64,000 nt of DNA from a virus: positions 38,657-102,656 of the IMG/VR virus record IMGVR_UViG_3300042863_003045; one strand, 5' to 3'. Both the position numbers and the translations under genes were made by a program. The notes under the pieces are model-generated. The model did no database searches. It was not told where the DNA came from and saw only the letters and a list, made by a program, of their open reading frames with translations. Positions 22,839 through 49,265 of the stretch are shown one piece after another (position 1 is the first letter of the stretch; each line of letters starts with the position of its first letter).

Positions 22839-24302
22839 ATGAACTACGACATTTTTAACAACATTCTACTACTTACAGATAGTTATAAACCAACACACTT
22901 TAAACAATATCCTAAAGGAACACAAAAAGTAATTTCCTACCTTGAAAGTCGTGGTGGAAAGTTTGATAACACACTTTTTTATGGACTGCAATACATTATC
23001 AAAAATTATCTTACTGGTAGAGTAGTAACAGAGGAAAAAATCCAACAAGCAAAAAGTTTCTGGGATGCACAAGTAGGCCCAGGAAACTTCTATGAAGAAG
23101 GCTGGAGATTCATTCTAAATGAATTTGATGGTCATCTACCAGTTACAATTAAAGCGGTTCCTGAGGGATCGGTAGTACCAACTGGAAATATACTAATTGA
23201 AGTTGAAAATAATGGAGGAGAACTTACACGATGGCTAACAAACTATCTTGAAAGCATTCTTCTACAAGCTTGGTACCCAATTACAGTTGGAACTCTTTCA
23301 AGAGAAATAAAAAAAGTTCTTATCAATTATCTGAAAAAAACAACAGATTATGATGCAGAAACAATAAATCAGATTGTACAATTTGGTCTTCATGACTTTG
23401 GTTTCCGAGGATGCTCATCTGTTGAAAGTTCAGGAATCGGAGGATCCGCTCATCTAATCAATTTCAGAGGAACAGATACCGCAACTGCTATCCTAACTGC
23501 ACAACATTTTTACAATACAAGTGAAATGTTGGGATTCTCAATTCCAGCATCAGAACACTCAACAATTACTTCTTGGGGAGAAGAGAATGAAGTTAAAGCA
23601 TTTGAAAACATGTTGGATTCTTATAAAGGAATAAGAGCCTGTGTATCAGATTCTTATAATATCATTAGAGCATGTGAAAAATATTGGGGAGAAGATCTTA
23701 GAGATAAAATTCTAAACCTTGATGGAAGACTTGTTATTAGACCCGATAGCGGGGATCCAGTACAAACACTTAAAAAAATATTCTCAATTCTTTGGGATAA
23801 ATTCGGTGGTAGAATCAACTCAAAGGGATTTAAAGTACTTGATGACCACCTTAGAGTTATTCAAGGAGATGGTGTTAACTATGAGTCAATCAAAGATGTT
23901 CTTGATATGATGGTAGATGAAGGATTCTCAACAGAGAATCTAGTATTTGGAATGGGAGGAGCACTGCTTCAAAAAGTAGATAGAGATACTCAGAAATTCG
24001 CTTTCAAGTGTTCAGCAATTGTTTTAAATGGTGAACTAAGAGACGTTATCAAAAGACCAATTGAGATTGATGAGAATGGAGAAATCCAACAATCATTTAA
24101 AACTTCTAAGAAGGGTCCTATGAAACTTCTAAGAAAGGTTAATGGTGATGTTGAAGAATGGGAAACAGTTCAAGAAACAACCGATCTGGTAGGTGATTAT
24201 ATGGTTAAAGTATTTGAGAATGGCAAGATTCTTAAAGAATGGACATTTGAGGAAATTCGAGAAAGAGCCGAGGTTAAATTTAAAGTCAATGAGTATGTTT
24301 GA
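22839..24302 (+). CDS. nadV: Nicotinamide phosphoribosyltransferase
   Basis: TDSYK, LHDFGFRG, IPASEHS, VSDSY, IRPDSG, IQGDG, FGMGG. Confidence 0.95.
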   Translation: MNYDIFNNILLLTDSYKPTHFKQYPKGTQKVISYLESRGGKFDNTLFYGLQYIIKNYLTGRVVTEEKIQQAKSFWDAQVGPGNFYEEGWRFILNEFDGHLPVTIKAVPEGSVVPTGNILIEVENNGGELTRWLTNYLESILLQAWYPITVGTLSREIKKVLINYLKKTTDYDAETINQIVQFGLHDFGFRGCSSVESSGIGGSAHLINFRGTDTATAILTAQHFYNTSEMLGFSIPASEHSTITSWGEENEVKAFENMLDSYKGIRACVSDSYNIIRACEKYWGEDLRDKILNLDGRLVIRPDSGDPVQTLKKIFSILWDKFGGRINSKGFKVLDDHLRVIQGDGVNYESIKDVLDMMVDEGFSTENLVFGMGGALLQKVDRDTQKFAFKCSAIVLNGELRDVIKRPIEIDENGEIQQSFKTSKKGPMKLLRKVNGDVEEWETVQETTDLVGDYMVKVFENGKILKEWTFEEIRERAEVKFKVNEYV

Positions 24303-27527: not shown

Positions 27528-28307
27528 ATGAGCCAAAAACTCAAAATACTATTAGAACAATCTAATTTTGATGATCTCCTATCAAAAATAAAAGATCTTA
27601 CAAAAATATCTGATACAATAAAGATAAAAATAGATAATGATTCTATTTTCATGTACGCTATGATAGGAAGCGAAAGTATTGTACTTGCTTTTAAAAGTTA
27701 TGAAATCCCCACAAAGGATTATCTTCTTATAAAAGAAGAATTAACACACACAATCAATATAATTATCACAAGCGCAAAAAGATTTGTTAAAAATATGTCT
27801 TTTATAAAAAAAGACCATAAAATAGAAATGATGATAATACATAAAGCAGAGAATGATAATAATTCAGAAGCTCGCAGTGTTCAAATCAAAAATGATAAAT
27901 TCAAACTAAATATAGAAACCGGAGAAACATCAGAAATAAAAGAAATAACAAAAGAACAACTTAATAAAAGGTTAGATCTTAAGAATAAAAACTGGTCATT
28001 TAGAATAAAAAATTCAGACTTCAACGATATTAAAAGCCTATCAACAATCAATTCAGACGATACAAGAAGAATTTTAAATATAAATATAGAAGACTACAAA
28101 GTTTTCATATCAGAAACAAACCTTTGGGAAATTGAGATAGATTATATAACAGAAGAAAACAAACAACTAAGTATAAATAAAAAATTCCTGTCTTCAATAA
28201 ATGACGGTGGAAAAGATATAGATGCACATGTATTCGAAACATTTATTCTCATTAAAGATGATGAAAGCCAATTAATGATATCATTCGAACAAGATTTTAC
28301 ACAGTAA
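27528..28307 (+). CDS. Putative sliding clamp (gp45/PCNA-like)
   Basis: 259 aa, alternating helix/strand pattern, adjacent to polymerase. Confidence 0.5.
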   Translation: MSQKLKILLEQSNFDDLLSKIKDLTKISDTIKIKIDNDSIFMYAMIGSESIVLAFKSYEIPTKDYLLIKEELTHTINIIITSAKRFVKNMSFIKKDHKIEMMIIHKAENDNNSEARSVQIKNDKFKLNIETGETSEIKEITKEQLNKRLDLKNKNWSFRIKNSDFNDIKSLSTINSDDTRRILNINIEDYKVFISETNLWEIEIDYITEENKQLSINKKFLSSINDGGKDIDAHVFETFILIKDDESQLMISFEQDFTQ

Positions 28308-28321
28308 ATTAAATAATAGAA

Positions 28322-28507
28322 ATGAAACAATCACACATTATAATCAAGGAATTGCAGAATGGAAGAAAACAAGGTATAGTACTATTAAATATAGAAGAAA
28401 TATGGGAATTTGAAGATTTTGAAGAAGCTGAAAGAATTGCAAAAGCCTTTGAAATTAATTCAGATTCTGGTTGGAAATATAAGGTTAAAAGTATTAAATC
28501 AATTTAA
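28322..28507 (+). CDS. Small hypothetical protein
   Basis: 61-aa ORF in operon. Confidence 0.65.
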   Translation: MKQSHIIIKELQNGRKQGIVLLNIEEIWEFEDFEEAERIAKAFEINSDSGWKYKVKSIKSI

Positions 28508-28530
28508 TTATAAAAAATAATAAAAATAAA

Positions 28531-29990
28531 ATGACAAAAGAGGATAAAATAAATAAACTCATGTCACTAAAAAAACAGGCAAGCGAGTTGCAAAGAGAAG
28601 CTGATTACTTCAATGCGTTGCAACTCGCTCTTTTTTGACCCCCTCGGATTAATCTGAGGGGGAGTGGCTAAAACTTATATTGAATGGATCGTATGGTGCA
28701 TTCGCAACGAAATATTTCGTCTTGTTCAACAATTGGGTAGCATCTAGCATAACAGCGCAAGGTAGAGACCTTATAAAAACCATGGATACTATCAACCAAG
28801 ATTATTGGTATAATCAATGGCATTTAGATTTTGAATTGCATAAAAAAATGTGCATTAAAAATATATCTAAGATAGGTGAGAAAGAAACTGTTTCTGTGTA
28901 TGCTGACACGGATTCAATTTTTGTATCATATGATCCCGCGATAAAAAATTCTGAATGGAGAAATCTTCCTCTATCAAAAATAGATAGTTTGCAAAAATCT
29001 TTTGTTATTTTGGAGAAAAGACAAGAAACAATAACAACGAATTCAAATTGTTTAGGAATATTTAGAGAGGTAAGTGATTTTATAAACTTCTTAAAGGACA
29101 ATTCGCCTGATATATTAATAATAGATGGATTTTTTGTTAAAGATTATGAACTCAATTCGAAAGAAAATTCTGAAATCTTATCCAATAATAAGATATTTTG
29201 GAATTGGGTCAATGAATTGGATTATATTCAGGGAATAGATCATTTTAGGATCGGTGGATACTTTAAAAAGTCTCTTGAGGATTATGCAAAAAATTATGGA
29301 GTTGAGAATAGAGAAGATTTTGAATTAGAAAGAATATCAGAGTCAATTATAAATATTGCTAAGAAGAAATATATACAACATATTGTATATGAAGATGGGA
29401 TTACATATGATAGGTTAAATTATATCTTCCCAAAAGGTGTTGAGCTCGTAAGATCTTCAACTCCACTTTTTGCGAGAAATAAGATTGTGGATATAGTAAA
29501 ATATCTTTTTTCACATCCTGATGACTTTAATATAAAAGATCTTTTAAAATTAGTAAAAGATTTAAGAAAAGAATTTGAGTTAGCTGATATTGATGATATC
29601 GCGATGCAATCTTCTGTTTCTAAATACGATACAAAAGTTCTTGATGATAAGAATTCTTTGAGTTTTGTTAGTGGTGCTCACTTTGCTGTCAAAGCATCTG
29701 CTTATCACAACTATCTTTTATTTAAAAATCCTTCATTGCAGTCTAAATATGAATTTGTCAAATCTGGAACAAAGATAAAATATTATTATGTGAAGAATTC
29801 TAAAATAAATGATATGTTTGCTTATGTGCGGGGATCGTATCCAATGGAATTCGGACCTGAGGTCGATTATGATATTCAATTCTTCAAATCTATCATAAGC
29901 CCGATAAATTCAATTATTTCTCCCTTGGGATTGCCAGAAATCACGAAACGTTTGAGTGTTGTAATGGATATTTTCTCAGGAGATTTTTAA
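28531..29990 (+). CDS. Family-B DNA polymerase, C-terminal subunit of a split gene; reading frame interrupted by a 38-nt insert (28633-28670)
   Basis: ATG 28531 gives ...NALQLALF*; the -1 frame resumes LKLILNGSYGAF, ITAQGR, YADTDS, KKKY, KGVELVRSSTP. Confidence 0.9.
28633..28670 (+). other. Candidate translational-bypass coding gap (stop + GC-rich hairpin)
   Basis: TGA 28636-38; stem 28639-48/28653-62 with UUAA loop; flanked by Leu codons CTT and CTA. Confidence 0.7.
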
Positions 29991-31069: not shown

Positions 31070-31843
31070 ATGAAATTATTCCGTTATAAAAATTTTATTA
31101 AAGAATCAAAAGAGGACATAGACTCTATATGTAAAAAATTTGGTATAAAGAATTATACCATTAATGAAGACTCAGTTGATGTTGATGGAAATGTTAAACT
31201 ATACGATAAAGGATTAACTAAAATCCCCTTGAAATTTGGAAAGGTAAGTGGTTATTTTTATTGTCATGGTAATAAATTAATAAGTTTAGAAGGTTCTCCC
31301 CTTTCAGTTGGTGGTGATTTTTCTTGTCAGTATAATCAATTAAAGAGTTTGGAAGGTTCTCCCCTTTCAGTTGGTGGTAATTTTAATTGTAGTCATAATC
31401 AATTAAAAAGTTTAGAGGGTTCTCCTCTTTCAGTTGGTGGTCATTTTTCTTGTAGTTTTAATCAATTAAATAGTTTATCAGGCGCTCCCCTTTCAGTTGG
31501 TGGTTATTTTTCTTGTCGTTTTAATCAATTAAAGAGTTTAGAAGGAATTTCTGGAAGGATTTCCGGCGCAATTTATTGCACTGATAATCAACTAAGAGAT
31601 GTTAAAGGAGTTAAAGATGGTTGGTTAGGAGAATTTAGTGTATATGGAAATCCAGTCTATGAAATATTCAAATTATTTCCTAGAGACAACTGGGATGAAG
31701 TTATTGAAATCTTAAATGAGTATGAAGTGATCCGTGATAATGGCAATTTAATTATTTTACAAAGACTTGAACAAGTTTTTCTGGATCTAGGTTTAGAAGT
31801 TCCAGAAATTGAAGAAATTAAAGGATATAAAATTCATTTTTAA
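31070..31843 (+). CDS. Leucine-rich-repeat-like protein (22-aa repeats), paralog 1
   Basis: GGxFxCxxNQLKSLEGSPLSV x5. Confidence 0.85.
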   Translation: MKLFRYKNFIKESKEDIDSICKKFGIKNYTINEDSVDVDGNVKLYDKGLTKIPLKFGKVSGYFYCHGNKLISLEGSPLSVGGDFSCQYNQLKSLEGSPLSVGGNFNCSHNQLKSLEGSPLSVGGHFSCSFNQLNSLSGAPLSVGGYFSCRFNQLKSLEGISGRISGAIYCTDNQLRDVKGVKDGWLGEFSVYGNPVYEIFKLFPRDNWDEVIEILNEYEVIRDNGNLIILQRLEQVFLDLGLEVPEIEEIKGYKIHF

Positions 31844-40077: not shown

Positions 40078-40470
40078 CTATTTAAGAATGAATCTCCAAG
40101 AATCTTTCTTAGTAGATAAAGTTAAAATATTTTTCATTTTTTCATATATCTTTCCTTTATCATTCTCAAGGAACTCAACATTAACTTTTAAAGATTCTAT
40201 TTTAAGTTCTGAATCCACAATAACTTCAATACTTTCAATTGTTGCTATTGCATCACCTAATAATATATCATTATCATCATTACAATCTATGTAGTATGGA
40301 CTACCCATAGATGTTTTCATATCTTCTAAGGTTATTAATGATTTCTTACCTAAAAGAGAATTTAACTTGATCTCTCTTAAAAAATCTTTACCTGGTCGAA
40401 ATTGTCTTATATACTTTTCAAATTCAATAAGATCATTGTTTGAATCATCAATTTGTAGATGGTATTGCAT
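40078..40470 (-). CDS. Hypothetical protein, possible degenerate prohead-protease-like fragment
   Basis: LREIKLNSLL motif; VNVEFLENDKGK resembles GEIRLLNTYWGK. Confidence 0.55.
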   Translation of the reverse strand: MQYHLQIDDSNNDLIEFEKYIRQFRPGKDFLREIKLNSLLGKKSLITLEDMKTSMGSPYYIDCNDDNDILLGDAIATIESIEVIVDSELKIESLKVNVEFLENDKGKIYEKMKNILTLSTKKDSWRFILK

Positions 40471-40816
40471 TTCTCTCGCTTATTCTTTTTCTTATTTTAG
40501 TGAATATCTCAGTGTTCTGTATAGGATATTCAACACCATAATTTTCTATTAAAGTTTCTTTTCTCTTTTTTTCAGAACACTTTCTACAATAATATTCTAA
40601 CCATTTATTGTCATACTTTACATAGTTTTTAAATATAACATCTTTAACAACACCACATCCATCACATTTACAAGTTATCTTATAATGAGAACCCTTTGAA
40701 AGTAATTCAACTGGAATTGTTAAGTTTTCACCTATGTTTATATCATATCCAAAATCATCAAAATATTGAAAGTTTGATGAATTTATTTTAATTGTTATTT
40801 CTCTTGTTAGAATCAT
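40448..40816 (-). CDS. Zinc-ribbon protein; N-terminal module of the homing endonuclease family, no nuclease domain
   Basis: CKCDGCG...YYCRKC...ENYGVEYP, homologous to N-terminus of 43939..45519. Confidence 0.7.
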   Translation of the reverse strand: MILTREITIKINSSNFQYFDDFGYDINIGENLTIPVELLSKGSHYKITCKCDGCGVVKDVIFKNYVKYDNKWLEYYCRKCSEKKRKETLIENYGVEYPIQNTEIFTKIRKRISERNAIPSTN

Positions 40817-40888
40817 AAAAAACCGTAAGAATTTAAAGTATATATCTTGAATGGTCATGCCTGTTCTAAAATTTCTTATATTTGATAT

Positions 40889-43510: not shown

Positions 43511-43942
43511 ATGCAACATTTAAAACTATTTGAAAACTTTAAAAATGTTAAAACCATCAGAGATTTGATTGGTGATTTTCAATCTACTCTATTATTTCCA
43601 TATAAAGTAGGAAATTTTACTTTTAATAAGTATTTTATAAAAACAACAAATGGAGTTATAGTTAATGGATTTTCCTCTAAAGAAGAATTCAATTTTAATT
43701 TAGATAAAGAAATTCACGTTAAAGATAATCTAGTATATTCAATTTCAAATAAGTACCGCGCAATTGGATGTTTAGGAATAAAAGATGGTGAGATTTTAAT
43801 TTATTCCGACATACCTGGAGACTATCAGGGATCTGCATGGAAAGGCAACACTTTTTATGTGTATGGACACGATGGTCGTGAAAAAATAAATTTAGATGAT
43901 TTAGGAGAATCCGGATTTGCTGATAGAGGTGATCTATATTAA
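43511..43942 (+). CDS. Hypothetical protein with shared N-terminal peptide
   Basis: MQHLKLFENF. Confidence 0.75.
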   Translation: MQHLKLFENFKNVKTIRDLIGDFQSTLLFPYKVGNFTFNKYFIKTTNGVIVNGFSSKEEFNFNLDKEIHVKDNLVYSISNKYRAIGCLGIKDGEILIYSDIPGDYQGSAWKGNTFYVYGHDGREKINLDDLGESGFADRGDLY

Positions 43943-45519
43943 TTATTTAATTCCCATTTAATCTTCCCACAATCCCAAACTCTTGGTAAATCCAACTCAG
44001 ACTCTGAAAGTCCAGTTATACTTCTTTTGAAATTCGATTTATGAACTCTTTTGAAGTCCACTAGATATTTATAATCTGGCTTAGTTTCATAAGCCTTTTG
44101 AAATCCTAACTTTTCATAGAGTATTCCCCTGCTCCAATCTTTATCAGAATAACTTATTATTCTGGTAGGTAAATATTCTTTTGTAAAAAATGTTAAAATC
44201 TTAGAAGCTCCGCCAACAACACTGAATCCAGATTTATTACAGAATCTGTTTAGATTCCATTCAGTTTCTTTCATTTTCTTTCTTCCTTCAAATTTATCAA
44301 ATGTCATTAAACTAACTAATTCAGAATCAAAGAATAATCCAATCTTAACTTTTGAATTCACATAACCTTGAATGTGATTTTTATCCAAAAAATCTTTCAC
44401 TAAAACAGAATCATTTATTTCTCTTACTTCACACTTTCTCGCCATAATAATTGAACTTTTTCCTAAAATATTCTGAATCTGACTTTTCAATATATCAGAT
44501 TTTTCATCCCAATCATCTTCCCATATGTGAAAAATACGAATTTCTTTTTCTTCAAAGAATTCACTTTTCTCAATATGAAAAGTCTTTTCTTTATAAACGT
44601 CTGAATGCCAGTAAACTCCATTGAACTCAAATCCTAATTTGAAATAGGGCAAATAAATATCAATTTCTTTCCTATCAATCCTAAAGTTCTGAATTATTTC
44701 ACCAGGATAAATTGATTCAATAAAATTGAATAATTTAATTTCTTTTCCTGATTGATGAGTATCAACTGGATTACAAATAGTACATATGGTGGTTTTATAT
44801 TTTATTCTTTTTGAATAAACATCAATTCCAATTTCAAATTCATGATCTTTATTGTTATCACATCTGAAAAGAGATTCACCATCTTTTAAATATTTTAAAT
44901 AATTTGGATCATTTGCAATTTTGAAGTTTGATTTTCTAAATTTCTCACTTTTTTTATTGTTTCCTTCTCCCCAGTTCTTTATATAAGTCTGAGTCTTTTT
45001 TTCTTTTGTTTCAGAAGACTGTGATATATTTTCAACACCCCACCTTTCTATGTTGGTTGTTTTCATTTTATTCAAAATTTCTTCATTTTGCAAATGATGT
45101 TCTTTTCCAAACTTTTCTATATTATTCTCTTTTATCTTTTTTTGAATTTCTTTGGATTGAGATATAAACTCAACTCCCCATTTTTCTAAGTTTGTTTTTT
45201 TAGATTTTTCTTTAACAGAATCTAATTGGAATACATTCTCAACTCCCCATTTTTCTAAATTATTCTTTTTTAATTTACATTTTCTACATAGATAATCTCC
45301 TCCAGTATATCCATATTTAAAGTAGTCTTTAAATACTAGATTTTTCTCTACACCACATTCATCACACTTCACAAGTATCTCTGACCTTGATGCGTGCGTC
45401 AAATTTTCTATTGAAACTTGAACAACATCTTTTACTCTAAGATCCTTTTCAAAGAACTTCTGATAATGATTGAAATTTGCTGAATTTATTGTTATTGATA
45501 CTTGATCACTTATTATCAT
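43939..45519 (-). CDS. Putative homing endonuclease (KWGVE repeats, PD-(D/E)xK core, NHIQG/RFCNK C-domain)
   Basis: EIDIY...FEFNGVYWH...IWEDDW; NHIQG; VVGGASK; WDCG. Confidence 0.85.
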   Translation of the reverse strand: MIISDQVSITINSANFNHYQKFFEKDLRVKDVVQVSIENLTHASRSEILVKCDECGVEKNLVFKDYFKYGYTGGDYLCRKCKLKKNNLEKWGVENVFQLDSVKEKSKKTNLEKWGVEFISQSKEIQKKIKENNIEKFGKEHHLQNEEILNKMKTTNIERWGVENISQSSETKEKKTQTYIKNWGEGNNKKSEKFRKSNFKIANDPNYLKYLKDGESLFRCDNNKDHEFEIGIDVYSKRIKYKTTICTICNPVDTHQSGKEIKLFNFIESIYPGEIIQNFRIDRKEIDIYLPYFKLGFEFNGVYWHSDVYKEKTFHIEKSEFFEEKEIRIFHIWEDDWDEKSDILKSQIQNILGKSSIIMARKCEVREINDSVLVKDFLDKNHIQGYVNSKVKIGLFFDSELVSLMTFDKFEGRKKMKETEWNLNRFCNKSGFSVVGGASKILTFFTKEYLPTRIISYSDKDWSRGILYEKLGFQKAYETKPDYKYLVDFKRVHKSNFKRSITGLSESELDLPRVWDCGKIKWELNN

Positions 45520-47050
45520 TATTTAGGTTTTTATTTATATTCAATTCAAATACAATTGTTCCAGAATCATATATTCTGAAATAGTTAAGTTTGTTCATTA
45601 TTTGATGTTCGGTCAATGATATATCAAATCCCTCTTTTATTAGGTCAGATTTATTGAAATTTGATTTATTTATTCTCAGAGTATAATCTTTATGGAAGTA
45701 TGAGTATTCCGGATTTTTTCTAAGTATCTCTTTGAATCCTATATTTTTATATGATTCATATAATGGCCAATCTATACTTGTGCAATAAATTAAACTTTTC
45801 GGATTAAATGTTAATATTAAGTGGTTCAATAATTTTTGAAATGATGCTGGTATGTTATAATTCAATTTATTGCAGAATCTTTTTATTTCGTAACTATTAG
45901 AAGAATTTGATCTGCATATAGATATGGTGCTTATTAAATTTTCTTTAAGAAAAAGTCCAAATCTATACTTTGTTATATAGTGTCCATTAATATGATTTTC
46001 ATTCAAGAAATTCTTAGTTTCAATTAGAGAAATTTCTGATATTATACATTCATCCAAATTGATGCTAATATTTTTAGATATTAAATTTACTATCATAGAT
46101 TTTACTATTTCTTTTTTATTTTTCCAATCATCTTCCCATACATGCACCACCTTTATTCCTAACTCCTCAAAAAAAATACTTTTATCTCTGTGATAATTTT
46201 TTTCTTTATATTTTTCAGAGTGCCACCATAATCCATTACACTCAAATGCCAGATTCATATCAGGCAGATAAATATCCATTTCATATTTTTTGAACATCTT
46301 ACACTTCCTTATTACTTGAGTATTTGCGTTCTTTTCTATAAAATCAGCAACATCCATCTCAAAAAAAGAATCATTGTTGTTTGGATTACAATTCAAGCAT
46401 ATTTTAATATTACCACGATTTCTTTGACTGAATAATGACCTAGTTATAGAAAATGATTTAGAACAATCATTGCAAAATAAATGAAAATTATATTTATCCA
46501 TACTTTCAACAAGATATCCAAGGCTTTCTATATTTTTTTTCGATTTTATCGTATTCGTCTCTGATAATACTTCTTTAATCTTTTTAGATTTCTCTTTATT
46601 GATTTCTTTATTTTTCGATATGTTGTTTACTCCATATTTCTCTATTACCGTTTCAGATCTTTTTTGATTTATTTCTATTCTTTTTTCTTCACTGAATCCT
46701 TCTTTTGTGGAATTCGCTTTTTCAGTCATTAAATTTCTCAAATCCTTGTCATAGTTACACAACGACATCTTTTTTATTCTTGACTCTTTTATCTTATCAT
46801 CTTTATGTGTATGCTCTGCTGCACATTTTTTAGAACAATATTTTCTATATCCCTGTGAAAATTTTATGAATTTAACTTTTGTTTCACAGTTTTTACAACT
46901 TGGTGTTTTAGAAAATCCATTTTGAAAAAGCCAGACATATTCACTCAGTGATATATCCTCCTCCTTTACAAATTCTATCATCTCATCATAAAATTCTTTA
47001 TGATCTCTTTTTAATTTCTTCTCAGTCAATCTATTGGTTGTTTTGAACAT
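45506..47050 (-). CDS. Putative homing endonuclease, same family
   Basis: YCSKKC; EMDIY...FECNGLWWH...VWEDDW; RIYDSG. Confidence 0.85.
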   Translation of the reverse strand: MFKTTNRLTEKKLKRDHKEFYDEMIEFVKEEDISLSEYVWLFQNGFSKTPSCKNCETKVKFIKFSQGYRKYCSKKCAAEHTHKDDKIKESRIKKMSLCNYDKDLRNLMTEKANSTKEGFSEEKRIEINQKRSETVIEKYGVNNISKNKEINKEKSKKIKEVLSETNTIKSKKNIESLGYLVESMDKYNFHLFCNDCSKSFSITRSLFSQRNRGNIKICLNCNPNNNDSFFEMDVADFIEKNANTQVIRKCKMFKKYEMDIYLPDMNLAFECNGLWWHSEKYKEKNYHRDKSIFFEELGIKVVHVWEDDWKNKKEIVKSMIVNLISKNISINLDECIISEISLIETKNFLNENHINGHYITKYRFGLFLKENLISTISICRSNSSNSYEIKRFCNKLNYNIPASFQKLLNHLILTFNPKSLIYCTSIDWPLYESYKNIGFKEILRKNPEYSYFHKDYTLRINKSNFNKSDLIKEGFDISLTEHQIMNKLNYFRIYDSGTIVFELNINKNLNNDNK

Positions 47051-47174: not shown

Positions 47175-49265
47175 ATGAAATCAGTACTAATTGTAGAAAA
47201 TGCAACTAACTCGTTATCACTCAATGAGAATGCAAGTCCTAAAAGAGATGAATATCTTTTAAGCGGTGTGTTCACTGAGTTTGATATCGTTAATAGGAAT
47301 GAAAGAATCTACACCGCAGAAAAATTCTTACCTGCTCTACAAGAGTTAAATGAGAGAATAACTTCACTTGGCGTAGTTTATGGTGAATTTGACCATCCCG
47401 ATGTTTTTGACACTTCGCTTTCAAGGTCTTCACACATTTTGAAAAAGGCAGCTTTCGTTAGAGAGTCTAACAGAGTTGAAGGTGAGATAAGATTATTAAA
47501 TACTTATTGGGGCAAAGAGGCTAAGGCACTTGTCAGTGATGGTTGTCCAATATTTGTATCATCAAGAGCAGCAGGTGTAACTGAGGCGAATGGTACAGTT
47601 AGTCTTAAAAAATTATTCACTTACGATATCGTAGCAGATCCTGGATTTTCATCTGCGAGAATGAACATAGTAACTCTTAACGAGTCACTTGGTTATAACA
47701 AAAAATCAAATTTCAGAATCTATGAGATGAAAGATGAATCAAAAATTAATGAATTATTCAACATGAACGCAAATGACTTTGTAACAAAAAAGCAGTTGAC
47801 TGATTATTCTAATTATTTAGTTAATGAGTTGTCAACAACAAAGAAGTCGGTTAAAACGGCTTTGAACAAGGGAAATCTTAACCCTAAGAAAATGGAACAA
47901 CTTTTAGAATACTATGATGAGTTGAACAAGACTAATTCACAGATTGTGAAGTATCTTGATTACTTAGCAGAAAAAGTACAGATTGTTGTTAATGAGAACA
48001 ATACTTTAAGATCTACTCAAGATAAGTTGATCAAACACAATGATTACTTAGCTGAGAGTTTAGAGAAGTCTATAAACTATACTGAATATATCGCAGAAAA
48101 ACTTGATAAGAATATTGAGTATTCTGAGTATATCGCAGAAAACTTGGATAAGAATATTTCTTATGGTGAGTATTTAGCTGAACATCTTGATAAGAACATT
48201 GCTTACTCTGAGTACTTAGCAGAAAATTTAGATAAGAATATTGAGTATTCTGAGTATATCGCAGAGAATTTAGATAAGAATATTTCTTATGCTGAATATG
48301 TTGCAGAGAACTTAGACAATTCAATTGCTTACTCTGAGTACTTAGCTGAACATGTTGAAGGTAACATTGCTTATGCTGAGTATATCGCAGAGAACTTGGA
48401 TGATAACATTGCTTACTCTGAGTATATCGCAGAGAATCTTGATAAGTCTATATCATACTCTGGTTTGATAGTAGAAAAATTAAAAGGTAACAAAAGATTG
48501 TTTGAATCTTATGGATCTGAGGAAGATGAAATGCCATCTTTGGATGACATGGGATTTGAACAAGTTAAAGAAGAAGAAGAAGATGATATGATGATGATGG
48601 GTGATGAACATATGTATCCATCAGTTGATGAAACTCCAGTGATGGTAGGTTCCTATGACGAAGAGGAAGAAGGTGAAGACGGAGAATGTCTTACTTGTGG
48701 TTCCGATGAAGAAGAGGAGGAAACCTACGAATCAACTGGTGATTCTGATACAGAGTTATCTAAATCTATTGATAAATTGATCGAAGAGGCTAAAAAACGT
48801 AAAGTCGCTGAAACAACCGATCTACATTTCTTGAAGTTTCTTAACAAAACTCAGGTAGACAGTTTCTACAGCCTCACAAATGAGGACCAAGAAGCAGTAA
48901 AACTTTACATAAACGAAAAAAGTTTCTTTAGCACGAAAGAAGTGCTTAGTCTAATATCTGAAGCGTTAAGTTCAAAAGAAGAAACTCTTGAACAAAGAGT
49001 AATAAGAATGATGCCAGAAAACGTAAAACCAATCTGGAATCAATTGAACGAGAGTTCTAGAAAGTCAGTTCTATCACAGGCTAGACTTTACCCTGAAGAT
49101 GTGTTGAAAACAGAATCACAAGTTGAACACTTCTGGTTGACTAGAAATCTTAAAAAGAATGAATCTGTGACTAAGAAATTAGTTTCACATGAAGCGTTAA
49201 TTCAAGAAGATAAATTATCTGACAACGAGTTAACATCAATCATGGAAAGATTCAAAAACCTTTAA
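47175..49265 (+). CDS. Prohead protease (gp21-like) fused to scaffold/core domain
   Basis: NRNERIY, GEFDHP, VSSRAAG, YDIVADPGF; coiled-coil repeats; immediately precedes the capsid gene. Confidence 0.92.
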   Translation: MKSVLIVENATNSLSLNENASPKRDEYLLSGVFTEFDIVNRNERIYTAEKFLPALQELNERITSLGVVYGEFDHPDVFDTSLSRSSHILKKAAFVRESNRVEGEIRLLNTYWGKEAKALVSDGCPIFVSSRAAGVTEANGTVSLKKLFTYDIVADPGFSSARMNIVTLNESLGYNKKSNFRIYEMKDESKINELFNMNANDFVTKKQLTDYSNYLVNELSTTKKSVKTALNKGNLNPKKMEQLLEYYDELNKTNSQIVKYLDYLAEKVQIVVNENNTLRSTQDKLIKHNDYLAESLEKSINYTEYIAEKLDKNIEYSEYIAENLDKNISYGEYLAEHLDKNIAYSEYLAENLDKNIEYSEYIAENLDKNISYAEYVAENLDNSIAYSEYLAEHVEGNIAYAEYIAENLDDNIAYSEYIAENLDKSISYSGLIVEKLKGNKRLFESYGSEEDEMPSLDDMGFEQVKEEEEDDMMMMGDEHMYPSVDETPVMVGSYDEEEEGEDGECLTCGSDEEEEETYESTGDSDTELSKSIDKLIEEAKKRKVAETTDLHFLKFLNKTQVDSFYSLTNEDQEAVKLYINEKSFFSTKEVLSLISEALSSKEETLEQRVIRMMPENVKPIWNQLNESSRKSVLSQARLYPEDVLKTESQVEHFWLTRNLKKNESVTKKLVSHEALIQEDKLSDNELTSIMERFKNL
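48040..48460 (+). repeat. About ten 42-bp (14-aa) tandem repeats YSEYIAENLDKNIx
   Basis: Visible in both DNA and protein. Confidence 0.9.

Follow-up and report, generated by a model that had tools for sequence, protein, structure and literature searches.

A candidate programmed translational bypass within motif B of a split phage DNA polymerase

How can a complete DNA polymerase be produced from a gene whose motif B is interrupted by 38 nucleotides (nt) that are closed in all three reading frames? This question is raised by a 64,000-nt stretch of the virus record IMGVR_UViG_3300042863_003045 (hereafter the window, to which all coordinates refer; the whole contig is 102.6 kb long with 28.5% GC), which encodes on its plus strand the C-terminal part of a split family-B DNA polymerase. 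The anatomy of this locus and its comparison with related loci indicate that the C-half cistron is probably decoded by programmed translational bypass, in which a peptidyl-tRNA would release one leucine codon and re-pair with another beyond the insert, in a manner that resembles the T4 gene 60/mobA cassette by analogy and not by homology.

The interrupted cistron and its relatives

The cistron comprises the second helix of the fingers, the palm and the thumb, and starts about 33 codons before motif B. The frame beginning at ATG 28531 reads MTKEDKINKLMSLKKQASELQREADYFNALQLAL up to the leucine codon CTT, which is followed by a phenylalanine codon (TTT, 28633-28635) and a TGA stop (Table 1). Directly 3' of this stop is a hairpin, CCCCCTCGGA/ttaa/TCTGAGGGGG, of 10 bp including one G:U pair (G28646:T28655), followed by AGTGG, CTA and the triplets AAA CTT ATA TTG AAT GGA TCG TAT GGT, which encode the KLILNGSYG of family-B motif B. 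Removal of positions 28633 to 28670 gives ...NALQLALKLILNGSYG, which matches intact relatives, and joining the two open frames across these 38 nt (...QLALKLILNGSYG) yields one conserved protein, as in the intact relatives, with motif B and the motif C sequence YADTDS in a single frame and with a match to the Pfam family DNA_pol_B. The joined product has 473 aa and is colinear with intact relatives of 472-477 aa; for take-off at CUU and landing at CUA, the full-length protein would have a mass of about 54 kDa and the predicted tryptic junction peptide is EADYFNALQLALK. The leader open reading frame (ORF), the CTT and TGA codons, the 10-bp stem with its G:U pair and the 38-nt skip that restores motif B had all been described in an original prediction made from the letters of the window, and proved accurate to the base. 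No match to the sequence pattern of this exact allele was found in a viral-contig collection that does not include the window's own record, but indirect support for independent occurrences comes from the polymerase matches at least 98% identical to the window, all of which are ORFs of 402-436 aa whose calls begin past the gap and which lie on contigs of various sizes.

Table 1. Features of the interrupted polymerase cistron, with coordinates in the 64,000-nt window
Feature	Coordinates	Strand	Evidence
Leader: the 34 codons that open the polymerase C-half cistron (second fingers helix), the last being the take-off codon	28531..28632	+	Conserved in intact and interrupted alleles
Upstream stem-loop, 5' arm AGCGAGTTGCAA, codons for S-E-L-Q	28582..28593	+	Pairing and compensatory changes in type A alleles
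Upstream stem-loop, 3' arm TTGCAACTCGCT, codons for L-Q-L-A, ending one base before the take-off codon	28618..28629	+	
Proposed take-off codon CTT (Leu34)	28630..28632	+	CTT/CTC to CTA in 16/16 distinct type A gaps
38-nt coding gap: TTT, TGA, hairpin, AGTGG and landing codon CTA	28633..28670	+	Absent from intact alleles
Zero-frame stop TGA, second codon past take-off	28636..28638	+	
Gap hairpin, 10 bp, loop TTAA, one G:U	28639..28662	+	Covariation
Purine run GAGGGGGAG (hairpin 3' arm plus two bases), putative Shine-Dalgarno-like landing guide, 3-8 nt before the landing codon	28656..28664	+	Putative function
Proposed landing codon CTA	28668..28670	+	
Resumed frame: motif B (KLILNGSYG), motif C (YADTDS) and thumb, to the stop	28671..29990	+	Pfam DNA_pol_B E = 1.8e-13; 100-70% identity to many relatives

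The insert was claimed to be closed in every frame, and this holds as well: stops occur in frame 1 at 28636, in frame 2 at 28655 and in frame 3 at 28650 (TAA), and the downstream frame is open only from 28653, with TAA 28650 closing frame 3 before that point. With every frame blocked in this way, neither one frameshift nor readthrough can link the two open frames.

Related loci, 160 in number, were taken from viral and metagenome collections, and the 131 that were parsed represent 92 distinct motif-B regions, 38 of them intact and 54 interrupted (59%). Statistics on stops, spacing, frame and G:U pairs cover 51 distinct gaps. Gaps are 36-49 nt long and are found at six codon positions inside 30 nt, which in ALQLALKLVLNGSYG lie after Ala5 (type B), Leu6 (type A, including the window), Val9 (type C), Gly12 (type F), Ser13 (type E) and Tyr14 (type D). 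One locus (L106, ERZ724522 NODE-30, 72.7 kb) has two gaps eight codons apart, of type A after Leu6 and of type D after Tyr14, an allele that would require two successive hops in one mRNA. Gap lengths are distributed evenly over the three frame classes (14, 18 and 19 gaps by length modulo 3), every frame relation being used among the relatives. The zero-frame stop is the first codon past the take-off codon in six gaps and the second in 34 (together 40/51), and these early stops are TAA in 18 cases, TAG in 14 and TGA in eight.

This distribution bears on conventional recoding, that is, readthrough, an alternative genetic code or two frameshifts (for example at the CUUUUUU run and at AUC-UGA) that would add about 13 residues. 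A U-run is present ahead of the stop, CUU-U is the slippery context known from prfB, and some relatives have in-frame gaps of 36, 39 or 42 nt. Recoding of this kind is nevertheless extremely unlikely, given the closure of all three frames in the window, the equal representation of frame classes, the use of three different stop codons, the long ORFs of the window, which are intact under translation table 11, and the insert-encoded 'peptides', which are not conserved among relatives. No suppressor or Leu tRNA genes were found on the window contig or in G001, a 483-kb relative genome that is 98% complete and has its polymerase C-half interrupted by a gap.

At five of the six sites, take-off and landing codons specify the same amino acid: besides the type A pairs (Table 1), GTT is matched with GTA or GTT in 6/6 type C gaps and GCN with GCN in 7/8 type B gaps, and the pairs are TCT and TCA in type E and GGT and GGT in type F. 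The third base is mostly U in the take-off codon and mostly A in the landing codon, and a tRNA with U34 would read the former by wobble and the latter by a Watson-Crick pair. In type D, the largest gap class, most landing triplets are near-cognate or unrelated, with TAA or TAG in six, NAY in seven and TAC in two of 18. Type D loci, among them L005, L009, L012, L014, L034, L037, L041, L043 and L061, have AAC, TAA, AAA and other triplets before GGA, and in several of them the gap hairpin is lengthened to 16 bp and covers the stop codon.

On a tree of the downstream protein, the gap labels need 38 changes, compared with 43 for shuffled labels. Locus L022 (type B) and locus L034 (type D) encode identical proteins, and the sister of the window, L001, is intact. 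This almost random scattering of gap types over near-identical polymerases indicates that gaps are gained, lost and swapped fast, with the enzyme unchanged.

The gap hairpin and the upstream stem-loop

A stable hairpin is present in every parsed gap, with about 9-16 bp, mostly a 4-nt loop, and a folding energy of -18 to -31 kcal/mol. It starts 5-6 nt past the take-off codon in 37/51 gaps and ends 4-8 nt ahead of the landing codon in 43/51, and the 3' spacer between hairpin and landing codon is 58% A in the relatives. Conservation is seen in the outer C/G pairs and covariation in the inner ones: in an alignment made from sequence only (A2), 90.6% of cells pair, seven of ten pairs have double changes, and the covariation score is 0.498, compared with 0.150 for shuffled alignments (0/500 reach it) and 0.06-0.14 in slid controls. 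G:U pairs occur in 27/51 stems and the sense strand folds better in 48/51 (p = 8e-10), which together argue that the structure is selected in mRNA and not in duplex DNA; the single G:U pair of the window, which had been put forward as a sign of selection at the RNA level, is therefore part of a family-wide pattern.

In the window, the C5...G5 hairpin is the sole one of its kind (0.02 expected), and no other stem in the 102.6-kb contig combines a length of 9 bp or more with six or more G:C pairs. The 98 nt from 28576 to 28673 fold at -40.6 kcal/mol (z = -4.83), and none of 200 shuffles folds as well. The hairpin and the fold at the polymerase gap thus exceed chance. In relatives that are at least 90% complete, a C5..G5 hairpin was found at the polymerase gap only, save for one intergenic terminator between convergent genes (G004, 147.8 kb), which is unrelated. 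A dispersed repeat or mobile mini-element was rejected as the identity of the insert because the hairpin is unique in the contig and confined to the polymerase in near-complete relatives, and an intrinsic terminator was rejected because the T-run is 5' and not 3' of the hairpin, which sits inside a conserved frame.

Regarding the 3' side of the gap, GAGG and GGAG lie 8 and 3 nt before CTA, and the spacer of the window is AGUGG. As a separate observation, UCGCU (28625-28629), before the take-off codon, can pair weakly with AGUGG (28663-28667), before the landing codon, which would approximate both codons; this pairing competes with the upstream stem-loop and was not seen in relatives.

The upstream stem-loop lies in the leader, where AGCGAGTTGCAA pairs with TTGCAACTCGCT over 12 bp that end one base before CTT, so that, with hairpins on both sides, CUU-UUU-UGA forms a 9-nt single strand. 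The 54 nt before the gap region have a GC content of 0.37 in gap alleles and 0.30 in intact alleles, and are also more structured in the former, because a helix is written into the coding sequence of the leader. This helix tracks the gap site: in types A, B, C (4/6), E and F, its 3' arm runs up to the take-off codon, with a mean longest helix of 10.3 bp in type A, 12.0 in B, 9.8 in C, 15 in E and 13 in F, as against 5.4-6.4 bp (maximum 8) at matching positions in intact alleles. Among 16 type A alleles, 88% of cells pair (28-39% when slid) and compensatory changes, part of which replace residues of the leader, occur at six pairs; in the same columns of 34 intact alleles, 44.8% of cells pair and no covariation signal was detected. 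In these alignments, the upstream stem-loop is specific to gap alleles and covaries. A downstream 'forward barrier' structure did not differ significantly between gap and intact alleles (p = 0.11).

The two strong hairpins around the 5' junction could also be the recognition structure of a micro-intron, the main alternative named in the original prediction, in which case the 38 nt would be excised from the mRNA and the ends ligated, for example by a structure-specific nuclease and a phage or host RNA ligase, leaving a continuous message for an ordinary ribosome; a gap length independent of frame suits splicing as well as hopping. A micro-intron is unlikely, however, as gaps of 36-49 nt are far below the size of any known self-splicing intron, and splicing does not explain the early in-frame stop in 40/51 gaps, the synonymous border codons, the codon-counted spacing of 5-6 nt or the purine run 4-8 nt before the point at which the frame resumes. 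A search of positions 28000-29500 against Rfam (E <= 1) gave no match. We are not aware of a bacterial or phage system that cuts inserts this short out of mRNA. A group I or group II self-splicing intron was rejected, the 38-nt insert being without the catalytic core of a few hundred nt and without a match in Rfam.

Translation of both flanks and the proposed bypass

The ratio of nonsynonymous to synonymous polymorphism (pN/pS) of the leader amounts to 0.28 across 49 alleles with a gap and to 0.23 across 32 without, values that point to purifying selection in gap and intact alleles alike. Past the gap, the codons change synonymously and the encoded sequence K-L-[IV]-L-N-G-S-Y-G is retained, and downstream frames of at least 380 aa are present in 119 loci, with no frame decay seen. 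As read from selection on the sequence, the evidence says that the gene is decoded in both frames. A gap-specific nascent-peptide signature was not found in the leaders, whose Lys-rich sequence is equally conserved in intact alleles.

Both frames would also be decoded if the gene were split further, with a 35-aa leader peptide ending at TGA 28636, a second protein re-initiating after the gap with the aid of the G-rich arm, and non-covalent assembly of the two. The polymerase is already divided at the fingers tip, with the halves far apart in relatives, a Shine-Dalgarno-like run is present ahead of the resume point, and an engineered split in the fingers of the Pfu polymerase is reportedly tolerated (PMC3061061). 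Against such a split, which we regard as improbable, the window has no in-frame ATG, GTG or TTG between TAA 28650 and the essential lysine codon AAA 28671. Initiation at the only candidate post-gap start, TTG 28680, would cost motif B its K-L-I, and this start lacks conservation, CTG, TTA or CTT taking its place in relatives. An in-frame start codon occurs inside 15/51 gaps only and not in the window gap, and the matched codons and the upstream stem-loop would be left without a role.

For a bypass, we infer the following course. A ribosome would translate the 34-codon leader and reach CUU with peptidyl-tRNA-Leu, at which stage the 12-nt 3' arm of the upstream stem-loop would be inside the ribosome, and the 10-bp hairpin located 6 nt downstream would hinder the decoding of UUU and UGA. 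The peptidyl-tRNA would release CUU and the ribosome would slide over the folded hairpin, the re-folding behind it of first the upstream stem-loop and then the gap hairpin giving the direction of movement. Either the G-rich 3' arm or the re-formed hairpin would set the distance, the same tRNA would re-pair with CUA, and translation would resume at AAA to produce an uninterrupted motif B.

The hop from CUU to CUA that the original prediction proposed is consistent with the comparative evidence, namely the 16/16 type A codon pairs, the covarying hairpin, the use of every frame relation and the lack of a post-gap in-frame start in the window. Alignment of related polymerases, recommended there as a check, reveals both gap presence and absence (54 versus 38 alleles) and stem covariation. 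Its caveat that a UUU codon precedes the stop turns out to describe a rule of the family, in which the stop is the second codon in 34/51 gaps and the constant feature is the distance of 5-6 nt from take-off codon to hairpin.

Several observations weigh against a bypass. UUU, a common codon at 28.5% GC, would occupy the A site, and the stop is not adjacent to the take-off codon, unlike in gene 60. With the first base of the codon in the P site as reference, the hairpin starts at +9 or +10, a position that differs from that of T4's A-site stem and from the 11-12 nt at which stem-loops have been shown to block A-site tRNA binding (PMC7282821). The spacer of the window, AGUGG, is not A/U-rich, unlike that of most relatives. 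CUU and CUA would be served by one tRNA only if the host has a U34 tRNA-Leu(UAG), which is an assumption about the host. Type D gaps are without the upstream stem-loop and mostly without a cognate landing codon, exceptions that show that the bypass rules are not universal. The matched codons and conserved flanks could partly reflect common descent, co-conversion with a mobile cassette or a 2-nt target duplication. Finally, the single-copy status of the C-half rests on the genome G001, and the window contig is about 21% complete, so a second copy may exist in this phage.

Considered as a family, the gaps may represent a modular class of long-range bypass with a mechanism of its own, a tentative proposal that we regard as a serious possibility. 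In this class, two hairpins bracketing a 9-nt take-off window, one upstream in coding sequence and one of 10-12 bp located 6 nt downstream, would make bacterial ribosomes hop 36-49 nt irrespective of frame, starting from any of six codons, with the A site occupied by a sense codon and, in the case of L106, two times on a single mRNA. As the Tyr class includes gaps without a cognate landing codon, landing would be measured by RNA structure or Shine-Dalgarno distance instead of anticodon re-pairing.

Host phage, origin of the gap and known systems

The window phage is an uncultured T4-like myovirus in which genes for the gp20 portal, the gp23 capsid protein, a prohead protease and a clamp loader are present, and it is taken to be huge (about 0.5 Mb), the genomes of its relatives being 0.46-0.64 Mb. 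The window contig represents about 21% of a complete genome, and neither an exonuclease domain nor a polymerase N-half was detected on its 102.6 kb. Near-complete relatives have the polymerase divided at the tip of the fingers, with about 100-170 kb between the two halves. In the genome G001, the C-half and the N-half each occur once, the latter as a 515-aa frame at a distance of about 96 kb (loci at about 77 kb and 173 kb), and a search of this genome for family-A or DnaE polymerases found none. Judged from this single copy and the lack of another replicase in G001, the C-half is needed; an intact second copy, which the original prediction had named as evidence to the contrary of bypass, is absent from this best available genome. 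The tRNA genes of G001 are only those for tRNA-Cys (GCA), tRNA-Met (CAT) and tRNA-Gln (TTG), and three tRNA genes in nearly 0.5 Mb are few for a phage that large. In the closest huge phages in GenBank (LR745206.1 and LR756502.1), motif B is intact.

Regarding the origin of the gap, relatives have a homing-endonuclease-like gene of about 370 aa (PF24308 DUF7487, phrog_3339, phrog_12131) just upstream of the polymerase and mostly divergent from it. This gene is present at 42/62 gap loci and at 0/39 intact loci (Fisher p = 2e-13, a value that ignores relatedness), a linkage that speaks for descent from a selfish element. Most likely, the gap arrived together with a homing-endonuclease cassette, and it probably persists by destroying the target of that enzyme in motif-B DNA; the concentration of gap sites in the best-conserved DNA of the gene would fit a nuclease target destroyed by the gap, as proposed for mobA and gene 60. 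No nuclease-like gene lies beside the polymerase in the window, where it may since have gone, with the gap alone left. Distant paralogues of the nuclease family are present in the window at 43939-45519 (-), 45506-47050 (-) and about 40451-40819 (-), 12-17 kb from the polymerase (tblastn E down to 5e-16). The suggestion that the gap could gate or regulate replicase synthesis is unsupported, the nuclease linkage pointing to a selfish origin instead.

A selfish hairpin insertion could also have killed the C-half, with the phage surviving through co-infecting intact relatives or another polymerase. The coexistence of gap and gap-free alleles among near-identical polymerases, the link of the insert to a selfish nuclease gene and the small part of the genome (about 21%) covered by the contig would all accommodate such a defective allele. 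It is very unlikely, however, to account for a gap carried by 59% of distinct alleles, in which both hairpins have diversified with compensatory changes and the leader and downstream frame are under purifying selection without downstream decay (frames of at least 380 aa in 119 loci), and G001 has no alternative replicase.

Other genes of the window include one at 31070-31843 (+) for a 257-aa protein with about seven tandem 22-residue repeats of leucine-rich type (SLEGSPLSVGG.F.C..NQLK) and no Pfam match, and one at 22839-24302 (+) for a nicotinamide phosphoribosyltransferase (NAMPT_N and NAPRTase, E = 2e-50), an auxiliary gene of nicotinamide adenine dinucleotide (NAD) salvage. A 696-aa protein encoded at 47175-49265 (+) shows a weak match to the T4 prohead core protease (Peptidase_S77) over its N-terminal 140 residues and is much longer than gp21.

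Bypass is so far proven only in phage T4 gene 60 and in some yeast mitochondria. In T4 gene 60, a 50-nt bypass lies inside a mobA homing-endonuclease cassette, with homologues in myovirus topoisomerase genes (bioRxiv 10.1101/2022.08.31.505936; bioRxiv 10.1101/2024.12.09.627546) and, according to Manning and Atkins, in topoisomerase genes only (bioRxiv 10.1101/2022.08.31.505936). Its 5' stem-loop is 9 nt before the take-off codon, and re-folding of this structure behind the ribosome has been proposed to drive forward movement. The polymerase family resembles gene 60 in that an essential replication gene is split in two, with a nuclease-type gene adjoining the downstream cistron in most carriers and the gap placed a few dozen codons into that cistron (34-42 in the polymerase family, 34 in the window, 46 in T4). 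Take-off and landing codons are likewise matched or differ at the wobble base only, the gap has an early stop, a 5' stem-loop, a hairpin at take-off and a purine-rich, putative Shine-Dalgarno-like element before landing are present, the gap's 3' portion is A/U-rich in most relatives, and insertions recur one or a few codons apart.

Unlike gene 60, the interrupted sequence is polymerase motif B and not a topoisomerase, with no sequence similarity apparent as judged by eye, and the gap is shorter (36-49 nt). Its stem has 10-12 bp with C5/G5 and lies 5-6 nt past the take-off codon, whereas that of T4 is a small A-site stem starting at the stop; the stop is usually the second and not the first codon (adjacent in only 6/51 gaps); and the upstream stem-loop abuts the take-off codon instead of being 9 nt away. 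Six take-off positions are used, with Leu, Ala, Val, Gly, Ser and Tyr codons, where T4-type take-off codons are Gly or Asp, and no gap-specific nascent-peptide signature was seen in the polymerase leaders. Homology to the MobA element finds no support, the interrupted gene being a family-B polymerase, the nuclease of the relatives matching DUF7487, phrog_3339 and phrog_12131, and the window having no nuclease gene that adjoins the polymerase.

In mitochondria of the yeast Magnusiomyces capitatus, Lang et al. in 2014 and Nosek et al. in 2015 are said to have described byps, GC-rich hairpin inserts of 27-55 nt that are skipped in translation. These reportedly have a poorly decoded codon past the take-off codon and occur in dozens of copies over many mitochondrial genes. 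The polymerase gaps share with them a short GC-rich hairpin insert in AT-rich coding sequence and codons for take-off and landing that match, and differ in that the hairpin is unique in the contig and restricted to the polymerase gene in near-complete relatives, that translation is bacterial and that the gaps are linked to a homing-endonuclease-like gene. Split gp43A/gp43B DNA polymerases were reportedly found in some T4-related phages by Petrov et al. in 2006. The present polymerase shares with these a family-B replicase that is broken into two cistrons within the fingers; it differs in the distance between the halves, about 100-170 kb in relatives, and in the further, untranslatable gap that interrupts motif B of the C-half. 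Candidate short-distance bypassing at UUA codons of Streptomyces phages (PMC10732093) is likewise phage-encoded, with a stem-loop and a flanking Shine-Dalgarno interaction, and was likewise proposed from comparative sequence only. Its hop is much shorter, its trigger is a rare codon, and other genes and hosts are involved. Full-text literature searches found no description of a polymerase bypass.

Gene callers shorten the polymerases described here, calling 402-439 aa where about 473 aa are expected, and such truncated calls affect the annotation of huge phages and phylogenies of family-B polymerases. Efficient long-range bypassing has one experimentally dissected bacterial example, T4 gene 60, whose known relatives are all homologous topoisomerase cassettes. 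If bypass at the polymerase gap is true, a second, non-homologous family would be available, in which dozens of variants, six take-off codons and movable upstream stem-loops would separate general features from those particular to T4; two flanking structures, matched wobble codons and a purine guide are candidates for the former. The relatives would then form a natural set of 'mutants' ready for reporter and cryo-electron microscopy work, and homing-endonuclease cassettes would more than once have found a way to break up an essential catalytic motif that is not lethal to the phage.

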